From positions 4,364 to 68,363 of the forward strand of contig JACPPV010000032.1 of the NCBI GenBank assembly GCA_016190825.1: DNA of 64,000 bases, in the 5' to 3' direction. Of this stretch, positions 7,496 to 63,476 are shown piece by piece; position 1 is the stretch's first letter, and each line of letters opens with the position of its first letter. Origin of the DNA: Chloroflexota bacterium (GTDB lineage Bacteria; Chloroflexota; Dehalococcoidia; Dehalococcoidales; UBA2162). The notes beneath the pieces were generated by a model. The model ran no database searches, was not told the origin of the DNA, and saw nothing but the letters and a program-made list of their open reading frames with translations. The position numbers and the translations under genes were made by a program.

Positions 7496-7855
7496 TTACC
7501 AGCCCATCATGCCGCGGCCCGTGCCGCCACCCATCATCCCACCATTTCCCATCATGTCCTGCATACCGCCGTTGCCCATCATGCCGCCTGTTCCATGCAT
7601 GCTTTGATGGTCCATGTCCCCCATGACAGCATCGCATTCCTCATACATGCTTTCGTGGTCAACGTCTTCCATCACGATAGCACATTGAGCATGTTGCACA
7701 TCCGTAGGAGGGGCTCCCATAATGGGAACTGTGCCTCTGGGTGGGGTTGAGATTCCAGCAAAGGCAGTGCCCAACAGGGGAGTGCCGATGATGACTCCTG
7801 CGGCAAAAGCCAGTACGATGGCCGCTATCAATAGTATCTTCCGGGTTCCAAGCAT
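7496..7855 (-). CDS. Exported Met/His/Gly-rich protein (putative metal binder)
   Basis: Signal/TM N-terminus, repeated D(V/M)DH(E/Q)SM, GGMMG repeats; AAGGAGG SD. Confidence 0.8.
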   Translation of the reverse strand: MLGTRKILLIAAIVLAFAAGVIIGTPLLGTAFAGISTPPRGTVPIMGAPPTDVQHAQCAIVMEDVDHESMYEECDAVMGDMDHQSMHGTGGMMGNGGMQDMMGNGGMMGGGTGRGMMGW

Positions 7856-8000
7856 TTATGACCTCCTTAATTTTATTTTATTTTGAGCATTTCCTGCTCT
7901 CATGATTAATGCTATCAGGCTCTTATGTAGATGGTATCAGCAAAGTATGAAGAAATTATGTGGTTTTCCGGAGAGGGTGACAGAATCGCGTAGTGTTATT

Positions 8001-8019
8001 AGAACTCTTGTGCTACTAT
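8001..8019 (+). promoter_or_regulatory. LexA-like box overlapping an extended -10 upstream of the terminase pair
   Basis: AGAAC-TCTT-GTGCT (1 mismatch to AGAAC-N4-GTTCT); TG-c-TACTAT at 8011-8019. Confidence 0.55.
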
Positions 8020-8051
8020 TTGTCATTGATACGGCAGGCGGAGATAAAGCG

Positions 8052-8414
8052 ATGGAAGACGAAGAAAAGAAAAAAAGGGGCGCGCCGAAGGGCAACCAGA
8101 ACGCCCGGAAGCATGGTTTTTACTCCCGGGTCCTTGACGAGAAGGAGCGGGCTGACTTCGAGATGGCCACCTGCGTGGAGGGCATCGATGGCGAGATAGC
8201 CCTGCTGCGGGTAAAGATAAAATCGCTTGTGGAGCGGGACCCCGAGAATATGCGGCTCATCATGCAGGCAATAAATACGCTAGAAAGGCTGGTCAGAACG
8301 AAATACAGCATTGGCAAGGAAGACAAGAAAGGACTGAGGGGCGCCGTCGCCAACGTCCTCAAAGATATTGCTTTGCCGCTGGGTATCGGCGTGGGAACAG
8401 CGCTCAAGAAATAA
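8052..8414 (+). CDS. Putative terminase small subunit-like protein
   Basis: GAPKGNQNARKHGFYS motif seen in phage TerS N-termini; directly upstream of TerL. Confidence 0.7.
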   Translation: MEDEEKKKRGAPKGNQNARKHGFYSRVLDEKERADFEMATCVEGIDGEIALLRVKIKSLVERDPENMRLIMQAINTLERLVRTKYSIGKEDKKGLRGAVANVLKDIALPLGIGVGTALKK

Positions 8415-8508
8415 AGTAGCAAGGGTCAATCATCAAGTGTCAAGCCCCCTTTTCTACGGCGTTTGTTACTTGTGACTCGGCAATTGACACCTTTCTCCGG
8501 AGGCACTT

Positions 8509-9894
8509 ATTAATCCTCAGATCAGTCAGCTTCGTCCTTACCAGCAGGAGGTAGCCCTGGCGGTCCTGGACAGCGTCTTTGGCCGCAAGGGACTTACCTT
8601 TTCCGTGGAGATTGCCCGGCAGGGCGGCAAAAATGAGCTCTCCGCCCAGCTTGATCTCCTGCTGCTCACTCTCCACATGGCGCAGCCTAAGAACCTGGTG
8701 AAGTGCGCGCCTACCTTCAGGCCGCAGGCAGTTATTTCCATGGGCCGGCTAAAGGACCGCCTGAATGATGCCGGCTTTGACGGAATATGGACAGCCGAGC
8801 TTGGTTACATCATCCGGCTGGGCGCCGCCCGGGCGATTTTCCTCTCCGCCGATCGGTCAGCCAACGTCGTCGGACATACTGCCCATCTCCTGCTTGAGAT
8901 AGACGAGACGCAGGACGTGGACAAGGAAAAGTATGCCAAGGAATTCAAGCCGATGGGGGCAACTACCAACGTGACCACCGTGCTGTATGGGACAAGCTGG
9001 GATGATTCCACCCTTCTCGAAGAAATGAAGTACACGAACCTGGGGTTGCAGAAGCGGGATGGTATCCAGAGGCACTTCCGCTTCGACTGGCAGGAAGTTG
9101 CCAGATACAATCCCGATTACCTTGCCTACGTAGAAGGGGAAAAGGCGCGCCTGGGAGAAAATCATCCTCTGTTTCTGACGCAGTACCGCCTCATGCCCAT
9201 CCATGGCGGGGGCGGCTTTCTGTCCCCGCAACAACGGGCGCAGCTCCAGGGGGAACATTCCAGGAAGAGCCGGCCAGAGCCGGGGAAGGTTTATGTAGCC
9301 GGAATTGACCTTGCCGGGGAGGCGGAGGAAGGGGAAGGTGCCCGTTTGAGGGCGCTCAAGCCGCAGCAGGATTCCACCGTGGTTACCATCGGCGAAGTAG
9401 AATTTCCCGGCGGCGTTATGGCGCAAAAACAGCCGGCGGTCAAGATTGTGGAACACTACTGGTGGACGGGCAGGAAGCACACCGAGCTATACCCGCAGCT
9501 GGTGGATATCCTGAAAAACGTCTGGCGCTGCCGGCGGACAGCGGTGGATGCCACCGGAGTCGGGCAGCCGGTCGCGTCTTTTCTGAAGGAAGCGTTAGGC
9601 ACGATAGTGGTCCCCTTCACCTTTACACAGCCATCGAAATCTGAACTGGGGTTTAACCTGCTGGCGGCGGTCAACTCCGGCCGACTGAAGATGTATACCG
9701 GAGATGGATCGTTGGAGTACCGTGAGTTCTGGTCTGAAATGGAGAAAGCGCGGAGCCACTACCGTCCCAGCCAGACGATAGACTTCTACGTCGACCCGAC
9801 GCAGGGCCATGACGACTTCCTGATGAGCCTGGCGCTGCTGGCCGAGGCCGCCGGCAACTATTCGCCAAGGAGCGCGAGGGGAACAAGAGTTTGA
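8509..9894 (+). CDS. Phage-type terminase large subunit
   Basis: Q motif LRPYQ (8530), Walker A ARQGGKNE, Walker B LLEIDETQD, nuclease GIDLAG / DATGVG / HDDFLMSLAL; start extended upstream of the track's 8605. Confidence 0.88.
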   Translation: MNPQISQLRPYQQEVALAVLDSVFGRKGLTFSVEIARQGGKNELSAQLDLLLLTLHMAQPKNLVKCAPTFRPQAVISMGRLKDRLNDAGFDGIWTAELGYIIRLGAARAIFLSADRSANVVGHTAHLLLEIDETQDVDKEKYAKEFKPMGATTNVTTVLYGTSWDDSTLLEEMKYTNLGLQKRDGIQRHFRFDWQEVARYNPDYLAYVEGEKARLGENHPLFLTQYRLMPIHGGGGFLSPQQRAQLQGEHSRKSRPEPGKVYVAGIDLAGEAEEGEGARLRALKPQQDSTVVTIGEVEFPGGVMAQKQPAVKIVEHYWWTGRKHTELYPQLVDILKNVWRCRRTAVDATGVGQPVASFLKEALGTIVVPFTFTQPSKSELGFNLLAAVNSGRLKMYTGDGSLEYREFWSEMEKARSHYRPSQTIDFYVDPTQGHDDFLMSLALLAEAAGNYSPRSARGTRV

Positions 9895-9918
9895 CACCTC
9901 CCCCTTTCCAGCTATAAT
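9891..9918 (+). promoter_or_regulatory. sigma70 promoter of hom
   Basis: TTGACA-16-TATAAT. Confidence 0.8.
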
Positions 9919-9940: not shown

Positions 9941-11203
9941 GTGACTGAAGCCAAAATGAAGAATATCGCCGTCATCGGCTTTGGCAATATCGGCACCGGC
10001 GTGGTGGAGCTTCTTTACCGGAAGGGAATCGCCGGGTTGAAACTGGTTAGGGTGGTGGACACGGACCTGGAGAAGAAACGCCCGATCACCCTCCCGGCAG
10101 ACTATCTGAGCCGGGACTGGCGGGAAGCGGTCAGCGATCCCGGTATTGACGTCGTTGTCGAACTGATCGGCGGCATCGAGCCTGCCAGGACCATCCAGAT
10201 TGCCGCACTGCAAAAAGGCAAGGACGTGGTCACCGCCAATAAGAAGCTGCTTGCCAGAGAGGGGCAAAATATCTTCCAGATGGCGGCAAATTTAGACCGC
10301 CGCTTGGGCTTCCGCGCCGCTTTTGTGGGCTGCCATTCGCTTATCCACGAGTTCCGACAGGCCGGCACCGCCGCCAAAAAATTCCGGCGGATACATGCCA
10401 TTTTGAACGGCACCTCCAACTACATACTTTCGACGATGACCCGCGAGGGGAAAACCTTCGAGGAGGCCTTGAAGGAGGCCCAGGCGAAGGGCTTTGCCGA
10501 GGCCGACCCGTCCGATGATATTGACGGGCTGGATACGGCCAACAAGGTCCGCATCCTGCTGGCGCTTATCGCCAACTCCTACCAGCGGGCGGGCGATTTT
10601 CCGGTCGAGGGGATCCGTGATATCAGCGCTCAGGATATCCGGTATGCCGGGGAACTGGGCTACTCCGTGAAACTGGTCGGCGTGATTGAGCCGAAAGATG
10701 GCGTCTTCTACGTCAGCGTGCGTCCGGCACTGGTGCCGCAGATTTCCCTTCTCGGCTCCATAGACGGCGCCTATAACGGCACTGAGACGGAGGACGAATA
10801 CGGCGTGGTCTCAGGGCTGGTGGCGCCCGGCGCCGGGACCTATCCTACCGCCGATGCCGTCATCAAGGACCTGCTCGATATCGCCGAGGGCCGGCCGATG
10901 CCCATGCCCGATTCCGCCCGGCCGCTTGCCCTCGGCTCTGGTGAAAAGGAGGAGCGCCGGTACTACCTTCGCTTCAGCGTGGTTGACCAGGCCGGCGTTC
11001 TTGCCCGGATCTGCAACATTTTCTGGAACTACAACATCAGTATTGCCGCCGTTATCCAGAAGGAGGCGACCTCCAAGGATTTCGTGCCGGTGGTCATCAC
11101 CACCCACCTCGCCCGTGAGGGAGACATGATGACCGCTATCACCGAAGTTGATAAGCTGCCTGTGGTCAAAGCCCGGACAAAAGTCATCCGCATCCTTGCA
11201 TAG
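9941..11203 (+). CDS. hom: Homoserine dehydrogenase with ACT domain (divergent)
   Basis: GFGNIG, VVTANK, ILNGTSNYIL, EADPSDDIDGLDTANK, C-terminal ACT (DQAGVLA). Confidence 0.85.
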   Translation: MTEAKMKNIAVIGFGNIGTGVVELLYRKGIAGLKLVRVVDTDLEKKRPITLPADYLSRDWREAVSDPGIDVVVELIGGIEPARTIQIAALQKGKDVVTANKKLLAREGQNIFQMAANLDRRLGFRAAFVGCHSLIHEFRQAGTAAKKFRRIHAILNGTSNYILSTMTREGKTFEEALKEAQAKGFAEADPSDDIDGLDTANKVRILLALIANSYQRAGDFPVEGIRDISAQDIRYAGELGYSVKLVGVIEPKDGVFYVSVRPALVPQISLLGSIDGAYNGTETEDEYGVVSGLVAPGAGTYPTADAVIKDLLDIAEGRPMPMPDSARPLALGSGEKEERRYYLRFSVVDQAGVLARICNIFWNYNISIAAVIQKEATSKDFVPVVITTHLAREGDMMTAITEVDKLPVVKARTKVIRILA

Positions 11204-21369: not shown

Positions 21370-23772
21370 TCAGACTCTTAACGTTGCGCCCAATTCCCTC
21401 CCCAGCCTGTCCAGGACTTGTTTGAGAACCCCGTTGACTTCTTCGTCCGTCAGCGTGCGGTCAGGTGAATAGAAGGTCACGCGGTAAGCCAGGGACTTCT
21501 TTCCTGGCGGCACCTGTTCGCCGGAGTAGACATCAAAGAGCGCTACCTGTATGACAAGAGGAAAGCCCTTTATGAGGTCAGCCACCTGCCGGTGGGGGAT
21601 TTCGGTACCCACTACCATCGCCATGTCCCTGACAACCGCCGGGAACCTGGGCAGCGGCTGGAACACCTTCGGCGTCAGAGTGAAGGGAAGCAACGCCGGC
21701 AGGTCTATTTCCAAAACACAGGTTATCCCCACAATCTCGAGGTTCTCCGCCACACGGGGATGGAGGTCACCAACCACGCCCACACGTGTGTCTGAGACAA
21801 GTATCGTCGCCTGCCGCGCCGGGTGTAGACCGGTGTCTGTCCCCCGCTCAAAGCCTGCCGGAACCCCGAGCTGACCGAGTAGCGTCTCGACCACGCCCTT
21901 AGCATCGAAGAAATCCAGCATCTTGTTGTCCCCGTGCCATGACCTCTCTGCCCTGGGACCGTTCAACACGGCACACAGCTTTTCCCGCTCCTCCGGCAGA
22001 TCGCCGGGGCGGGGCATATAGACCCGGCCCACCTCGAACAGCCTTATGCCGCTTTCTTCATATTTTCTGTTGGCAGAGAGGGCTGCCAGCAGCCCGGCGC
22101 GCAGGGTGGGACGAAGGTATTCCTGCTCCACTGTCATCGGGTTCATCAGGCGCAAAGTGTCTTGCCCGTCCGTCAATCCAGCAGGCAAAAGCTTGCCTAA
22201 CAAATCCCGGCTGGTCAGCGAATAGGAGACAATCTCCTGGAATCCGTAGCCCGCCAGCCTGTTCCTCACCTGACGCTTCAGCCCGATAATCGGCTCCGGG
22301 CTCTGCGGCGGTATCGCTTGGCAAAGCATCGTCGTCGGGATACGGTCGTAGCCCAAAATGCGGGCAACCTCTTCGATAAGGTCGACATTATAGCGGATAT
22401 CGGTGCGCCAGTAGGGCGCCGTCACCGAAATCTCCCGGGGTCCGCGTACCTGGCAATCGAAGCCGAGTAAAGCAAGCGTATTTACTGTCTCGTCCAGGCT
22501 GAAGTCCGCACCCAGGATGCGTCTAACATCACCGGTAGAGAGCAGGATGGGCTTCGCCTCCCTCTTTCCGGGGTAGACATCAACGTAACCCTGCGCCGCC
22601 TTGCCTCCGGCGAGTTCCATCATAAGCTGCGTCGCCCGCTTCAACGCCGGAACGGTCAGTTCCGGGCTGATGCCCCTCTCGAAGCGCTGGCTGGCCTCGC
22701 TGGGCAAGCCCAGTGTGCGTGCAGTGTAGTGGATGTTGACCGGATTAAAGCTGGCCGACTCAAGTAATATCGTGGTGGTCTCTGGCGCCACCTCGCTGTT
22801 GGCGCCACCCATCACCCCTGCTATCGCCACCGCCCGCTCGGCATCGGCGATGACCAGCATATCGCTGGAAAGAAGCCTATCATTCCCGTCCAGAGTGGTC
22901 ATCTTTTCACTGTCAATCGCCCGGCGTACGATGATCTTCTTCCCGCGCACCAGGCTGTAGTCGAAAGCATGAAGCGGCTGCCCGTACTCCAGCAGGACGT
23001 AATTGGTTATGTCCACAATGTTGTTTATCGGGCGCATGCCGCAGGCGAGAAGTCGGTGCTGCATCCATGGCGGTGATTCCCCGATCCTCACATCGGTAAC
23101 GATGCTGGCGCAGTAACGCGGGCACAGGTCAGACGCCCGGATTTCTATTGAAACCCGCTCCCCTGTGGGCGGAGGGAACTCCGCGTAATCTGTCGCGGGA
23201 AGACGCACCTTCTGTCCGGTCAACGCGGCGACTTCGCGAGCAAGCCCGATCACTGAAAGACAGTCTGGCCGGTTCGGCGTTACCTCCAGGGTAAAAACTG
23301 CATCGCCGAGATGGTCAGCCAGCGGCATCCCCACCGGCGCATCGGGGGCGAGTACCAGGATACCCTGATGCTCATCGGAAATACCAAGCTCTTTTTCCGA
23401 GCAGACCATCCCGGTGGACTCCACCCCGCGGATCCTGGCGGATTTCAGCCGAACGAACTCCCCGGTGTGCCCGTCAATTAGCTCAGCGCCGACACGCGCA
23501 AAGGCGATCTTATCGCCCACGGAAAGATTCGGTGCACCACATACTACGGTCACCCTCTCTGTGCCCAGGTCCGCGGTTGCCAGGCGCAGGCGGTCGGCAT
23601 TTGGGTGCGGGTTGACCGCTACCAGTTGGCCAACGAAGATGTTTTCCCATCTTCCGCCTGCATTCTCGATCGTTTTGACCTCAAGCCCGGCCATTGTCAG
23701 CTTTCGCGCCACCTCGGCGGCCGACAAAGTGACATCCACATATTCCTTGAGCCAGCTTAATGAAACTTTCAT
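21370..23772 (-). CDS. pheT: Phenylalanine-tRNA ligase beta subunit
   Basis: MKVSLSWL, VVCGAPN, TPNRPDCLS, FDX-ACB tail. Confidence 0.97.
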   Translation of the reverse strand: MKVSLSWLKEYVDVTLSAAEVARKLTMAGLEVKTIENAGGRWENIFVGQLVAVNPHPNADRLRLATADLGTERVTVVCGAPNLSVGDKIAFARVGAELIDGHTGEFVRLKSARIRGVESTGMVCSEKELGISDEHQGILVLAPDAPVGMPLADHLGDAVFTLEVTPNRPDCLSVIGLAREVAALTGQKVRLPATDYAEFPPPTGERVSIEIRASDLCPRYCASIVTDVRIGESPPWMQHRLLACGMRPINNIVDITNYVLLEYGQPLHAFDYSLVRGKKIIVRRAIDSEKMTTLDGNDRLLSSDMLVIADAERAVAIAGVMGGANSEVAPETTTILLESASFNPVNIHYTARTLGLPSEASQRFERGISPELTVPALKRATQLMMELAGGKAAQGYVDVYPGKREAKPILLSTGDVRRILGADFSLDETVNTLALLGFDCQVRGPREISVTAPYWRTDIRYNVDLIEEVARILGYDRIPTTMLCQAIPPQSPEPIIGLKRQVRNRLAGYGFQEIVSYSLTSRDLLGKLLPAGLTDGQDTLRLMNPMTVEQEYLRPTLRAGLLAALSANRKYEESGIRLFEVGRVYMPRPGDLPEEREKLCAVLNGPRAERSWHGDNKMLDFFDAKGVVETLLGQLGVPAGFERGTDTGLHPARQATILVSDTRVGVVGDLHPRVAENLEIVGITCVLEIDLPALLPFTLTPKVFQPLPRFPAVVRDMAMVVGTEIPHRQVADLIKGFPLVIQVALFDVYSGEQVPPGKKSLAYRVTFYSPDRTLTDEEVNGVLKQVLDRLGRELGATLRV

Positions 23773-23773
23773 A

Positions 23774-24811
23774 TCAGAATTGCCTCAAAAATCTCAGGTC
23801 GCTGCCGTAAAAAAGACGCACATCGTCAATGCCGTAGCGCAGCATCGGCAAACGGTCTATGCCGATGCCAAAGGCAAAGCTGGTGTACTCTGCGGGGTCT
23901 ATCCCTCCGCGCTCCAGCACGCGGGGATGGGTCATTCCGGCGCCGAGTATCTCGATCCAACCACTGTTGCCGCAAAGACGGCAACCCTCGCCGTGACAGA
24001 CGGCGCACTCGATGGCCATTTCAACGCCCGGCTCGACAAAGGGAAAAAAGTCGCACCGGAAGCGCACCCTTCTATCCGGGCCAAAAAAACGGCGGGCGAA
24101 CTCGTAGAGCGTGCCTTTAAGGTCAGCCATGGTGATGCCTTTATCAACCGCCACAGCGTCAACCTGGTGGAACATCGGCACATGGGTGGCATCGCTCGCC
24201 TCGTAGCGGAACACCCTCCCCGGCTCAATAGTGCGAATCGGGGGCTTCATCGTCTCAACAATCCGTGCCGTGACCGAAGTGGTATGGGTGCGGAGGAGCG
24301 CCATCCATTCCCTGTCAGACGGCGGCGTATCAAGCCAGTAGGTAGACATCGAATCACGTGCCGGATGTTCCTTCGGGATGTTTAGCGCCTCAAAGTTATA
24401 GTAGTCCCACTCCACCTCTGCCCCCTCGACCACCTGGAATCCTAGTGACGCGAAGATATCGCACATTTCGTAAATGGTCTGCGTGATGGGGTGCAGGCGG
24501 CCAGAGGGAAGAGGGCGGCCCGGCAGTGTAATATCAACGGACTCAGCACCGGTGACAGCTATCCCCGTTTGGCGTAAAGCCTGCTCCTTCTCTTTCAGAA
24601 GGTCCTCAAGCTCAACCCTGAGCTGGTTTGCCCGGCTGCCAACAGTCTTTCTCGCTTCAAGCGGCAGCGTTCCCAACCCCCGCAGAACGCGGGTCAGCTC
24701 GCTGTTCCTGCCGAGATACTTCACCCGCCAGGATTCCAGCCCCTTAGGACTGCCCGCCCCCGATAGCGCCTGCAGCGCCTCCGCCCTTAGTTCGCCAACA
24801 GGGTCCCGCAT
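23774..24811 (-). CDS. pheS: Phenylalanine-tRNA ligase alpha subunit
   Basis: HPARD, LLRTHT, FFPFVEP, WIEILGAG. Confidence 0.97.
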   Translation of the reverse strand: MRDPVGELRAEALQALSGAGSPKGLESWRVKYLGRNSELTRVLRGLGTLPLEARKTVGSRANQLRVELEDLLKEKEQALRQTGIAVTGAESVDITLPGRPLPSGRLHPITQTIYEMCDIFASLGFQVVEGAEVEWDYYNFEALNIPKEHPARDSMSTYWLDTPPSDREWMALLRTHTTSVTARIVETMKPPIRTIEPGRVFRYEASDATHVPMFHQVDAVAVDKGITMADLKGTLYEFARRFFGPDRRVRFRCDFFPFVEPGVEMAIECAVCHGEGCRLCGNSGWIEILGAGMTHPRVLERGGIDPAEYTSFAFGIGIDRLPMLRYGIDDVRLFYGSDLRFLRQF

Positions 24812-62206: not shown

Positions 62207-62220
62207 AGAACACATGTTCT
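62207..62220. promoter_or_regulatory. LexA (SOS) box
   Basis: AGAAC-ACAT-GTTCT just downstream of TGgTAAAAT, upstream of dinB. Confidence 0.88.
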
Positions 62221-62252: not shown

Positions 62253-63476
62253 ATGTCTAACCGCACCATTATGCATATCGACCTAGACGCTTTTTTTGTC
62301 TCGGTCGAGCAGATAATGAACCCATCACTCCGGGGCAAACCGGTGGTGGTCGGTGGAAAGCCGGGCGGGAGGGGAGTGGTGGCCTGTGCGTCATACGAAG
62401 CAAGGGCTTTTGGCTTGCATGCCGGGATGCCCATATCCAGGGCTTACCGTCTCTGTCCCCAGGCAATCTTCATCGAGGGCGGTTATCCGAAATACCGCGA
62501 GGCTTCACGGAAGTTCATGCTCATCCTGGCTGATTTCTCGCCCTTTATTGAGCCAGTGGGTATTGATGAAGCCTACCTCGATGTCACTGGCTTTGAGTCC
62601 ATTCACGGCTCGATTCACCGGATGGCGGTGGCTATCAGGGAACGCACCAGAAAAGAGTTGGGGCTATGCGCCTCGGTGGGCATTGCCGGAGGCAAGGTGG
62701 TGGCGAAGGTCGCTTCTGAACTATCCAAACCAGATGGCTTGATTGAGGTGCCACCTGGCATGGATGCGGCTTTTCTATCACCCTTTTCCATTGACAGGCT
62801 GCCGGGAATCGGCGAGAGGACAGAGCAGGCGCTGAAGGGGCTGGGTATCAGGAGCATCGGTCAACTGGCCAGGTTGCCGCTAGAGGTTATGAAGAGGCAT
62901 TTCGGTGTCTATGGACAGGGCATACACCTTTGGGCGAATGGCATTGACGAAAGGAAGGTGGAGCTGCCCGGAGGGGTAAAGTCAATCAGCCGTGAAACCA
63001 CCTTTCCCGAAGATACAAGGAATAAAGTGGTCCTTAAAGCGATGCTGTGCTATCTTGCCGAAAGGGTGGCGGCTGAATTACGCGAACAGCAAAAGCGGGC
63101 GAAGTGCATCGCCATAAAGGTCCGCTATGCTGATTTCACCACCATAAGCCGCCAGCAGACCTCGCCGCAAAGCATGGATAGCGACCGGATGATATTCGGT
63201 AGCGGCGCCAGGCTGCTGGATAAGGCGCTACTGCTGGAAAGACAGCCGGTCCGCCTTGTCGGCATTGGCGCAAGCAACCTGGTGGAATTGGGCAGCCAGC
63301 TGAACATGTTCGACGCTTCGACGCAGAGGCAGGAGCAACTAAACCGGGCCGTTGACCGCATCCGCAAGAAATATGGCTTTACCGCCATCCAGACCGGCCG
63401 CACCCTGCCGCTAAAAGACCTTTTCCCCGAGACAGAGGCTGGCTATGCGCTTCATACAGCGAGTTTGTCACGGTAG
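62253..63476 (+). CDS. dinB: DNA polymerase IV
   Basis: HIDLDAFFVSVE, ASYEAR, GIDEAYLD, KPDG. Confidence 0.96.
   Translation: MSNRTIMHIDLDAFFVSVEQIMNPSLRGKPVVVGGKPGGRGVVACASYEARAFGLHAGMPISRAYRLCPQAIFIEGGYPKYREASRKFMLILADFSPFIEPVGIDEAYLDVTGFESIHGSIHRMAVAIRERTRKELGLCASVGIAGGKVVAKVASELSKPDGLIEVPPGMDAAFLSPFSIDRLPGIGERTEQALKGLGIRSIGQLARLPLEVMKRHFGVYGQGIHLWANGIDERKVELPGGVKSISRETTFPEDTRNKVVLKAMLCYLAERVAAELREQQKRAKCIAIKVRYADFTTISRQQTSPQSMDSDRMIFGSGARLLDKALLLERQPVRLVGIGASNLVELGSQLNMFDASTQRQEQLNRAVDRIRKKYGFTAIQTGRTLPLKDLFPETEAGYALHTASLSR

Follow-up and report, generated by a model that had tools for sequence, protein, structure and literature searches.

A pair of phage-type terminase genes, encoding a TerS-like small subunit (TerS; 8052-8414, + strand) and a large subunit (TerL; 8509-9894, + strand), lies amid host genes in the stretch of Chloroflexota DNA analysed here, a window of 64,000 nucleotides that corresponds to positions 4364-68363 of contig C27. 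We propose, with a probability of roughly two in three, that this pair is the packaging locus of a functional, domesticated, phage-derived particle system whose genes are spread over several loci, and the sequence of its promoters indicates that the system is probably SOS-induced. The preliminary description of the window had assigned the pair to a dispersed, co-opted system, as its packaging locus. This is still the best reading, given the unlinked head genes found elsewhere in the genome, the wide spread of the set, purifying selection, the lack of an integrase on the two contigs concerned and a LexA-type operator at both loci. A single ancient domestication, on the other hand, is not established because integrase-bearing relatives nest inside the clade that holds the TerL of this genome. 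True transfer of host DNA by the system is a more speculative proposal, which we consider possible but on balance doubtful.

The terminase pair and an unlinked head-gene locus

The source genome (G000) is a 1.82-Mb assembly of 41 contigs, 91% complete. Leaving the terminase pair aside, the window holds 52 open reading frames (ORFs) of at least 90 amino acids, all of them housekeeping or ordinary host genes, including those for LepA, RF-1, PrmC, RadA, PheST, H+-PPase, ThrRS, L20 and DinB, and its G+C content is unremarkable. As initially described, no portal, capsid, tail protein or integrase family appears among these 52 ORFs, and tblastn with the proteins of the module found no structural gene on contig C27.

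The TerS ORF is listed from 7902, and its start is most likely ATG 8052 because a promoter/operator occupies 7976-8015; the product is then 120 amino acids long, with the stop codon at 8412-8414. It shows a weak profile match to phrog_1889 ('terminase small subunit', E 3.3e-8, residues 7-62 only), reaches 30.6 bits against NF040601 (E 2.6e-7), far below the cut-off of 120, and matches no Pfam family. The position and conservation of the gene fit a TerS; of 29 related loci, 21 have a homologue immediately before TerL.

TerL is single copy in the source genome and its frame is open from 8488 to 9894, giving 461 amino acids if translation starts at ATT 8509. In Pfam it meets Terminase_6C alone (22.5 bits against a cut-off of 22.6), and phrog_5909 at E 1.8e-5. 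Its AlphaFold model (pLDDT 90, pTM 0.85) has exclusively large terminases as best PDB matches, namely HK97, D6E, T4 gp17 and Sf6 gp2 (Foldseek E 1e-18 to 1e-13). By structure comparison the ATPase domain aligns with those of P74-26, T4 and D6E, and the nuclease domain with those of G20c and P74-26 (TMt 0.72-0.80). Profiles, alignment and fold bear out TerL as a large terminase, with a TerS-like gene before it. Invariant in 22 aligned homologues are the ATPase residues R37, Q38, G40, K41 and N42 of Walker A, D132 and E133 of Walker B, G161 and T162, together with the nuclease residues D267, D347, H434, D435 and D436. The protein therefore combines an ASCE ATPase (Walker A lysine, Walker B D-E) with an RNase-H-like nuclease, and in relatives it has TerS and portal neighbours, the portal being unlinked here.

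The statement that all motifs are intact holds for these catalytic residues but not for the beginning of the gene, which has no canonical start codon. The first ATG, GTG or TTG is GTG 8605, inside the conserved N-terminus LRPYQ...ARQGGKN, and a start there would remove conserved elements; ATT 8509, with GGAGG (8499-8503) five bases before it, is the only plausible one. Relatives start TerL at TTG or at an ATG that overlaps the TerS end; here a spacer of 94 nt, peculiar to this genome, intervenes instead (8415-8508, + strand; in-frame TGA at 8485-8487). The remaining reading frames at the two loci are all of full length. A homologue search with TerL gave more than 3,800 relatives; the best 120, the protein itself (100%) aside, are 77-84% identical, those with names being called hypothetical and the close ones being assigned to Dehalococcoidales or Chloroflexota. 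In six genomes (G268, G140, G095, G406, G374 and G463) the TerL match falls in two halves within one long open frame of 500-610 amino acids, which suggests an in-frame insertion, perhaps an intein.

The pair is an orphan as far as the window goes, but not in the genome. In four relatives (G008, G168, G292 and G021) it adjoins genes for a helix-turn-helix (HTH) protein, an SPP1-type portal (PF05133, 4e-32), a protein of ~190 amino acids, a major capsid protein (GP7/Phage_capsid) and more conserved proteins. Searching with these neighbour genes by tblastn located unlinked head genes at C16:25480-33841, with identities of 67-69% for the portal, 78-82% for the capsid, 64% for a 666-amino-acid protein and 62% for the adaptor. 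A check for unlinked structural genes, set beforehand, thus returned portal, capsid, adaptor and further virion-type genes from contig C16.

Including its operator, the structural locus (L052) covers C16:25346-33845. It comprises, in listed order, genes for the HTH protein (Mor/sigma-r4-like, weak match), the SPP1-type portal (PF05133 8e-27; phrog_64 2e-38), a coiled-coil scaffold-like protein, the HK97-fold major capsid protein (phrog_212 6e-70; SU10_MCP/GP7), accessory proteins of 136 and 154 amino acids and a ConA-like lectin (Laminin_G_3, PF13385 5e-28). A 70-amino-acid protein follows, between the lectin and an SU10-adaptor-like protein (SU10_adaptor 2.4e-5, below cut-off). Then come a holin-like peptide of 63 amino acids with two hydrophobic, putatively transmembrane segments and a basic tail, the 666-amino-acid protein with an N-terminal beta-propeller and, after it, a second 70-amino-acid protein. 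The model of the 666-amino-acid protein has a pLDDT of 63 and a disordered C-terminal third; its matches in PDB and BFVD are just generic beta-propellers and lectins (TMq <=0.31), which allows no tail or nozzle assignment. The cluster is flanked by host genes (enolase, N6/N4 DNA methylase, phosphorylase).

From contig coordinates, the C16 and C27 loci are at least 37.8 kb apart (12.4 + 25.4 kb). Neither contig carries an integrase, the tyrosine recombinases of the genome lying on C2, C3, C20, C21 and C29 only. An intact inducible prophage spanning the contig gap, or a capsid-forming satellite akin to phage-inducible chromosomal islands (PICIs), would also explain a set made of TerS, TerL, portal, scaffold, capsid and adaptor with no long tail. 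Such a set resembles the head-only modules of capsid-forming PICIs, and an assembly in 41 contigs offers room for a gap. Yet at least 38 kb of housekeeping genes must separate the two loci, both contigs lack an integrase, and neither locus has near it any homologue of the integrase, Rep-O-like and other early genes carried by the relatives; a satellite moreover sits poorly with a TerL found in 103 of 151 genomes of the class and with family-level congruence. We therefore regard this alternative as very improbable.

Two profiles built from other Chloroflexota classes, A1 (portal-like) and A2 (capsid fusion), matched nothing in G000, G008, G021, G057 and G105, a null that is uninformative because G008 and G000 do have an SPP1-type portal and a GP7-like capsid, that is, different families. 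In those other classes (L037 and L047 of family f69; L039, f54; L040, f51) a TerL homologue 39-51% identical has after it a portal-like gene of another kind and a fusion of ~670 amino acids, whose C-terminal half is Phage_capsid_4/Mu gpT-like, with Amidase_2 or GH25 genes nearby. The two f69 loci also hold homologues of the adaptor and of the 666-amino-acid protein.

A LexA-type operator at both loci

The promoter/operator before TerS (7976-8015, + strand) consists of GGTGACA (7976-7982), 17 nt and TAGAAC-TCTT-GTGCTA (8000-8015). A composite GGTGACA-N16/17-TTAGAAC-N3-TGTGCTA is common to the sequences upstream of TerS (200 nt compared) and of the HTH gene in the structural locus (260 nt), and both strands of the 1.8-Mb genome hold exactly two such sites, these two (the second at C16:25346-25386); the motif was defined from the very sites it counts, whereas the lexA and dinB sites described below are independent of that choice. 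Its core, AGAAC-N4-GTGCT, is the LexA-box-like AGAAC-N4-GTTCT with one mismatch. The perfect form occurs at only three loci of the genome: immediately upstream of lexA (Peptidase_S24 + LexA_DNA_bind; C26:21053, gene at C26:21066-21764), before a response regulator gene and before dinB. The last provides an in-window reference for an SOS operator, a perfect palindrome, AGAACACATGTTCT, at 62207-62220, 32 nt before dinB (62253-63476), which encodes a Y-family polymerase (IMS family, E 2.9e-46). The one-mismatch form is found at four sites, before TerS, the HTH gene, an HD-domain gene and at one more position. GTGACA-N17/18-TAGAAC has the form of a -35/-10 pair, whose -10 element is therefore overlapped by the box. 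Dehalococcoides LexA reportedly binds a Gram-positive-type GAAC-N4-GTTC box.

The HD-domain gene just mentioned (C35:47863-49262, L138; HD-domain/HD_assoc_2 protein, 448 amino acids) is preceded by TAGAACTTTTGTGCTA, the same one-mismatch variant, and may be a third member of the regulon besides the two module loci.

A survey of boxes with at most one mismatch upstream of TerS, against a genomic background of 0.017 sites per kb, extended this observation to relatives. Within 400 nt the box precedes TerS at 15 of 21 loci of species-representative genomes versus 5 of 67 loci from IMG/VR; within 800 nt the figures are 16/21 and 9/67, and 7/9 for complete genomes with split loci. Three split genomes (G475, G448 and G471) carry it before both loci; in the unlinked one it lies 45-70 nt ahead of the gene for the scaffold or the capsid. 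It is absent from the integrase-bearing contigs L241, L168, L192 and L214, and from genomes G057 and G479. The box goes with chromosomal copies, in which it is enriched over IMG/VR copies.

These features can be assembled into a model. A small (~18 kb) temperate element, podophage-like, would have left a defective descendant resident in the host, which would have lost its integrase and replication genes and become split into at least two loci in the source genome; the pair would be its DNA-packaging enzyme. LexA would sit on the TAGAAC-N4-GTGCTA palindrome overlapping the -10 of both promoters, and its removal upon DNA damage would let both loci be expressed together. Portal, scaffold and capsid protein could then build procapsids, TerS would pick the DNA and TerL would cut it and pump it through the portal, with host DNA as presumed cargo in the manner of a gene transfer agent (GTA) or of PBSX. 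The adaptor and the beta-propeller protein would close the head and provide a short attachment device, while the holin-like peptide may aid release.

Free relatives, terminase-only lineages and selection

IMG/VR contains 367 relatives, of which the best 80 keep their genes contiguous, with TerL in 79, portal in 75 and capsid in 61; TerL is 57-79% and the capsid 45-75% identical. One of them, L241 (IMGVR_UViG_2721755314_000003), is 18.4 kb long and has a terminal repeat of 62 bp; it encodes an integrase, an HNH nuclease and a methyltransferase, alongside numerous small genes on the same strand. L168, L192 and L214 have an integrase too, L168 also a Rep-O-like gene. These phage-like contigs share with the set described here the order TerS-TerL-portal-scaffold-capsid-adaptor-large beta-propeller/lectin proteins; they differ in having integrase, HNH nuclease, methyltransferase, Rep-O-like and small early genes and no LexA-type box, whereas the set of the source genome is split and adjoins none of these. 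Next to the 47 chromosomal loci examined, no homologue of their early genes is present. Against the source genome these genes gave only generic recombinases and one 27-28%-identical match on C32 to DNA-polymerase-beta-thumb-like ORFs, all off C16 and C27.

Such autonomous-looking elements, nesting as they do among chromosomal TerLs, could mean that the two loci are plain, still undegraded leftovers of an integrated 18-kb temperate phage, torn apart by chromosomal rearrangement and serving no host function; the conservation would then reflect recent phage ancestry and host-bound phage lineages. The missing canonical start of TerL agrees with this, as do decay elsewhere (a broken TerL C-terminus in G033, a portal/666-amino-acid fusion in G021) and the 43 of 151 class genomes with neither gene. 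Nevertheless, every other frame in both loci is full length, and the insertion is not recent because TerL is only 70% identical to that of the nearest integrase-bearing contig. The dN/dS ratios (nonsynonymous over synonymous substitutions) equal those of enolase, split loci are syntenic across species in one genus, and the LexA-type box marks chromosomal copies, with the same composite at both loci here, while integrase-bearing contigs lack it. We thus hold such a remnant to be unlikely.

Distribution was followed in a phylum sample of 401 genomes and a class sample of 151. TerL matches, mostly single, were found in 140 of the 401, a tally that takes in three unpublished genomes (G038, G145 and G173) which enter no other claim. 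Of the 151 class genomes, 103 have TerL, 84 the capsid, a single-copy gene in nearly all, and 147 enolase. Tallied by hand, and with a few weak matches that may belong to other phages, 79 have both TerL and capsid, 24 TerL only, 5 capsid only and 43 neither.

Across the class, identity to the enolase of this genome stays within 51-73%, a range too small to be correlated in one dimension, and trees were used for this reason (quick IQ-TREE; 27 capsid, 31 TerL and 25 enolase sequences), enolase being the sole marker standing in for the species tree. All three trees recover the same six same-family pairs (f3, f9, f15, f103, f111 and f119; SH-aLRT 80-100) and group f1 with f2; the median length of terminal branches is 0.12 in the capsid tree and 0.29 in those of TerL and enolase. 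Within families, dN/dS (Nei-Gojobori) ranges over 0.09-0.58 (TerL), 0.05-0.33 (capsid) and 0.08-0.30 (enolase), at dS values of 0.4 to >1 that are near saturation for several pairs. On the proposed test by TerL tree and selection the results point both ways: host families are recovered and dN/dS resembles that of enolase, but integrase-bearing relatives are nested in the chromosomal clade.

Other genera retain split loci too. Two genus g4 genomes of 1.7-1.9 Mb, G057 and G069, have TerL, portal, capsid, adaptor and the 666-amino-acid gene. TerL and capsid are adjacent (3-13 kb) in six complete genomes (G008, G069, G464, G494, G372 and G452) and 25 kb to ~0.7 Mb apart in 12 others (G057, G458, G438, G504, G475, G518, G420, G448, G471, G468, G505 and G405). 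The two separated loci of genus g10 keep their synteny, and that of their flanks, across G458, G438, G475 and G518, with dS of ~1 and dN/dS of 0.05-0.09; the split is thus older than these species and both genes have been strongly constrained since. This retention is, to our mind, the strongest argument for a set that would serve the host rather than persist as a phage.

A different course has been taken by genus g3, represented by three genomes, where the stretch from the portal to the 666-amino-acid gene is deleted and TerS and TerL are retained. In G021 (L032, C1:366000-385999, ORF 7682-9127) ~68 portal-like residues are fused to the C-terminal ~410 residues of the 666-amino-acid gene; scaffold, capsid and adaptor are gone, and LexA-type boxes persist on both sides. 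A 23-sequence capsid profile found no match in G021, G033, G096, G105 and G141, all 98-100% complete with the terminase pair present, nor was an SPP1-type portal found in the first four, G141 being outside that search. The pair is still constrained in g3 (dN/dS 0.10 for TerL between G021 and G096, 0.02-0.07 for TerS, against 0.05-0.07 for enolase). Unrelated HK97-type capsids occur elsewhere in G021, G096 and G105; G033, whose TerL has lost its C-terminus, has none. Other genomes have multiplied the pair amid host genes while keeping one capsid gene per genome, with two pairs in G057 and four in G479 (L133-L136). G479, G414, G444, G494 and G508 (genus g232) each have at least four full-length TerS-TerL pairs and only one capsid gene. 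Two of the G479 copies are 98% identical, one copy adjoins a DDE transposase, and extra pairs lie near YidC, Jag and a major facilitator superfamily transporter.

Taken together, these lineages could mean that the terminase pair works without its own capsid, either by loading the heads of other phages (piracy, or interference with packaging) or in damage-induced DNA processing, the head genes on C16 being a separate matter. In favour are the five near-complete genomes with a pair and no capsid-profile match, the absence of an SPP1-type portal from the four searched, the constraint on the g3 pair, the unrelated HK97-type capsids of three of these genomes together with their lack in the one whose TerL is broken, and the extra lone pairs of G057 and G479. 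The idea is hard to reconcile with the cognate capsid present here and in 79 of the 103 TerL-bearing class genomes, with one operator common to both loci and with a pair contiguous with the portal in 75 of the best 80 IMG/VR loci. Besides, the g3 pattern comes from three genomes only, and we know of no capsid-independent terminase activity. We consider it improbable as an account of the pair studied here. A bolder corollary of the GTA-like reading raised below would be that TerS-TerL has turned semi-autonomous, duplicated as in G057 and G479 or kept alone under selection as in g3, which would hint at a second capsid-independent or capsid-borrowing role.

The proposed domesticated particle system has itself to be weighed against several points. 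TerL, with no canonical start before its conserved N-terminus, may be poorly translated or dead, and its Walker A has N42 where other terminases have S or T, though this residue is invariant across the 22 homologues of the family. The source genome, 91% complete, holds no tape-measure (PF10145), sheath (PF04984) or recognisable tail tube gene; with this and with only generic matches for the 666-amino-acid protein, DNA delivery by a particle is conjectural. The operator, a predicted LexA site, is one mismatch off the perfect box, and the composite motif was drawn from the two sites that it then counted. The set is not universal, 43 of the 151 class genomes having neither TerL nor capsid, g3 has discarded the head genes while keeping the pair, and several pairs have near-saturated dS values. 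Lastly, the TerL tree places L168 with G000 and G008 (SH-aLRT 97) and L241 with f17/f10, among chromosomal genes. Such a topology would result either from repeated endogenisation from host-bound phage lineages or from terminase exchange between resident and free elements, and family-level tree congruence could itself be the product of host-bound phage lineages combined with repeated endogenisation.

Known systems and the surroundings of the pair

At the gene level the set has a trait of GTAs, in that its phage-type genes for head and packaging are fixed in the host genome while those for integration and replication are missing, and a GTA-like system in Dehalococcoidia is plausible. What defines a GTA is the transfer of host DNA, carried as random pieces too small for the gene set and delivered to recipient cells. 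All GTAs known to us are from Alphaproteobacteria, spirochaetes, Deltaproteobacteria or methanogens. Among the literature matches listed, none describes a GTA or a conserved terminase/capsid set from Dehalococcoidia or Chloroflexi. We tentatively raise the possibility, less probable than the particle system as such, of an undescribed and independently domesticated GTA-like system in Dehalococcoidia and perhaps wider Chloroflexota. It would form a minimal short-tailed SU10-like particle from 8-13 genes at dispersed loci, be released from LexA after DNA damage and package host DNA.

RcGTA, the siphovirus-like GTA of Rhodobacter capsulatus (Alphaproteobacteria), is host-controlled and encoded at several unlinked loci. 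The set described here resembles it in having phage-derived head and packaging genes in the chromosome at several unlinked loci without integrase or replication genes, in its host-controlled expression, predicted in our case, in its wide occurrence in one bacterial class and in purifying selection. It differs in its unrelated lineage and architecture (SPP1-type portal, SU10/GP7-like capsid protein, SU10-like adaptor, neither tail tube nor tape measure); in an apparent control by a LexA-type box directly on both promoters; in autonomous integrase-bearing relatives that still circulate; and in its packaging and transfer of random host DNA, which are conjectural. PBSX of Bacillus subtilis forms SOS-induced particles that package host DNA. 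Like PBSX, the present set is a defective, chromosomally fixed group of phage genes that has kept its terminase and is predicted to respond to DNA damage. PBSX is, however, contiguous and myovirus-like with its own repressor, whereas here the ~11-13 genes are split and would make a short-tailed or tailless particle. The large terminases of cultured phages share the two-domain fold and catalytic residues (HK97, D6E, T4 gp17, Sf6 gp2), but identity does not exceed 32% among 50,697 phage records (best Bacillus phage vB_BboS-125 and BCD7), and the Walker A asparagine sets this TerL apart.

Dehalococcoidia include organohalide respirers used in bioremediation, with small streamlined genomes and dehalogenase genes on genomic islands. 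If the proposal is true, DNA-damage-induced particles moving host DNA would be a direct candidate for the spread of these genes. Several stages also coexist in this system, from integrase-bearing elements that circulate, through chromosomal copies that are contiguous or are split and carry host operators, to terminase-only lineages, a good natural series for the study of phage domestication.

Downstream of TerL, hom (9941-11203) has a promoter that is a host feature outside the module (9891-9918, + strand; sigma-70-type, 12/12 consensus positions), with TTGACA at 9891-9896, a 16-nt spacer and TATAAT at 9913-9918; a scan of the region gave 8 promoter-like sites against 1.2 expected. The TerL stop codon (9892-9894) does lie inside this -35 element, exactly as the preliminary description stated. 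It had noted this as a tight interlocking with host sequence; the arrangement is peculiar to this genome, hom being downstream of TerL in 0 of 29 related loci, and carries no information on domestication. Functional coupling of the two genes was dropped as a candidate on the same ground.

Some further features of the surroundings can be mentioned. A ParE-toxin-like ORF (PF05016; 18624-18965) and a Schlafen/AlbA_2-domain ORF (PF04326; 57449-58624) lie amid housekeeping genes of the window. The genes pheT and pheS (21373-24811) are 11.5 kb from TerL; in G008 and G021 they are 3.7-5.3 kb from TerS, on the opposite side of the pair, and this switch suggests that a local inversion has occurred at a position that is otherwise ancestral. 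In relatives, genes for large immunoglobulin (Ig)-domain proteins (TIG/Big) recur as opposite-strand insertions that separate TerL from the HTH/portal genes (L031 6801-9239, L045 5919-9283). The source genome has paralogues of these at C27:340-2379, ~10 kb upstream of TerS and just outside the window, and at C32:71570-73490. In family f10, CetZ-like genes of the tubulin/FtsZ family (PF00091 + CetZ_C) flank TerS-TerL at L035 (G105) and L036 (G078).

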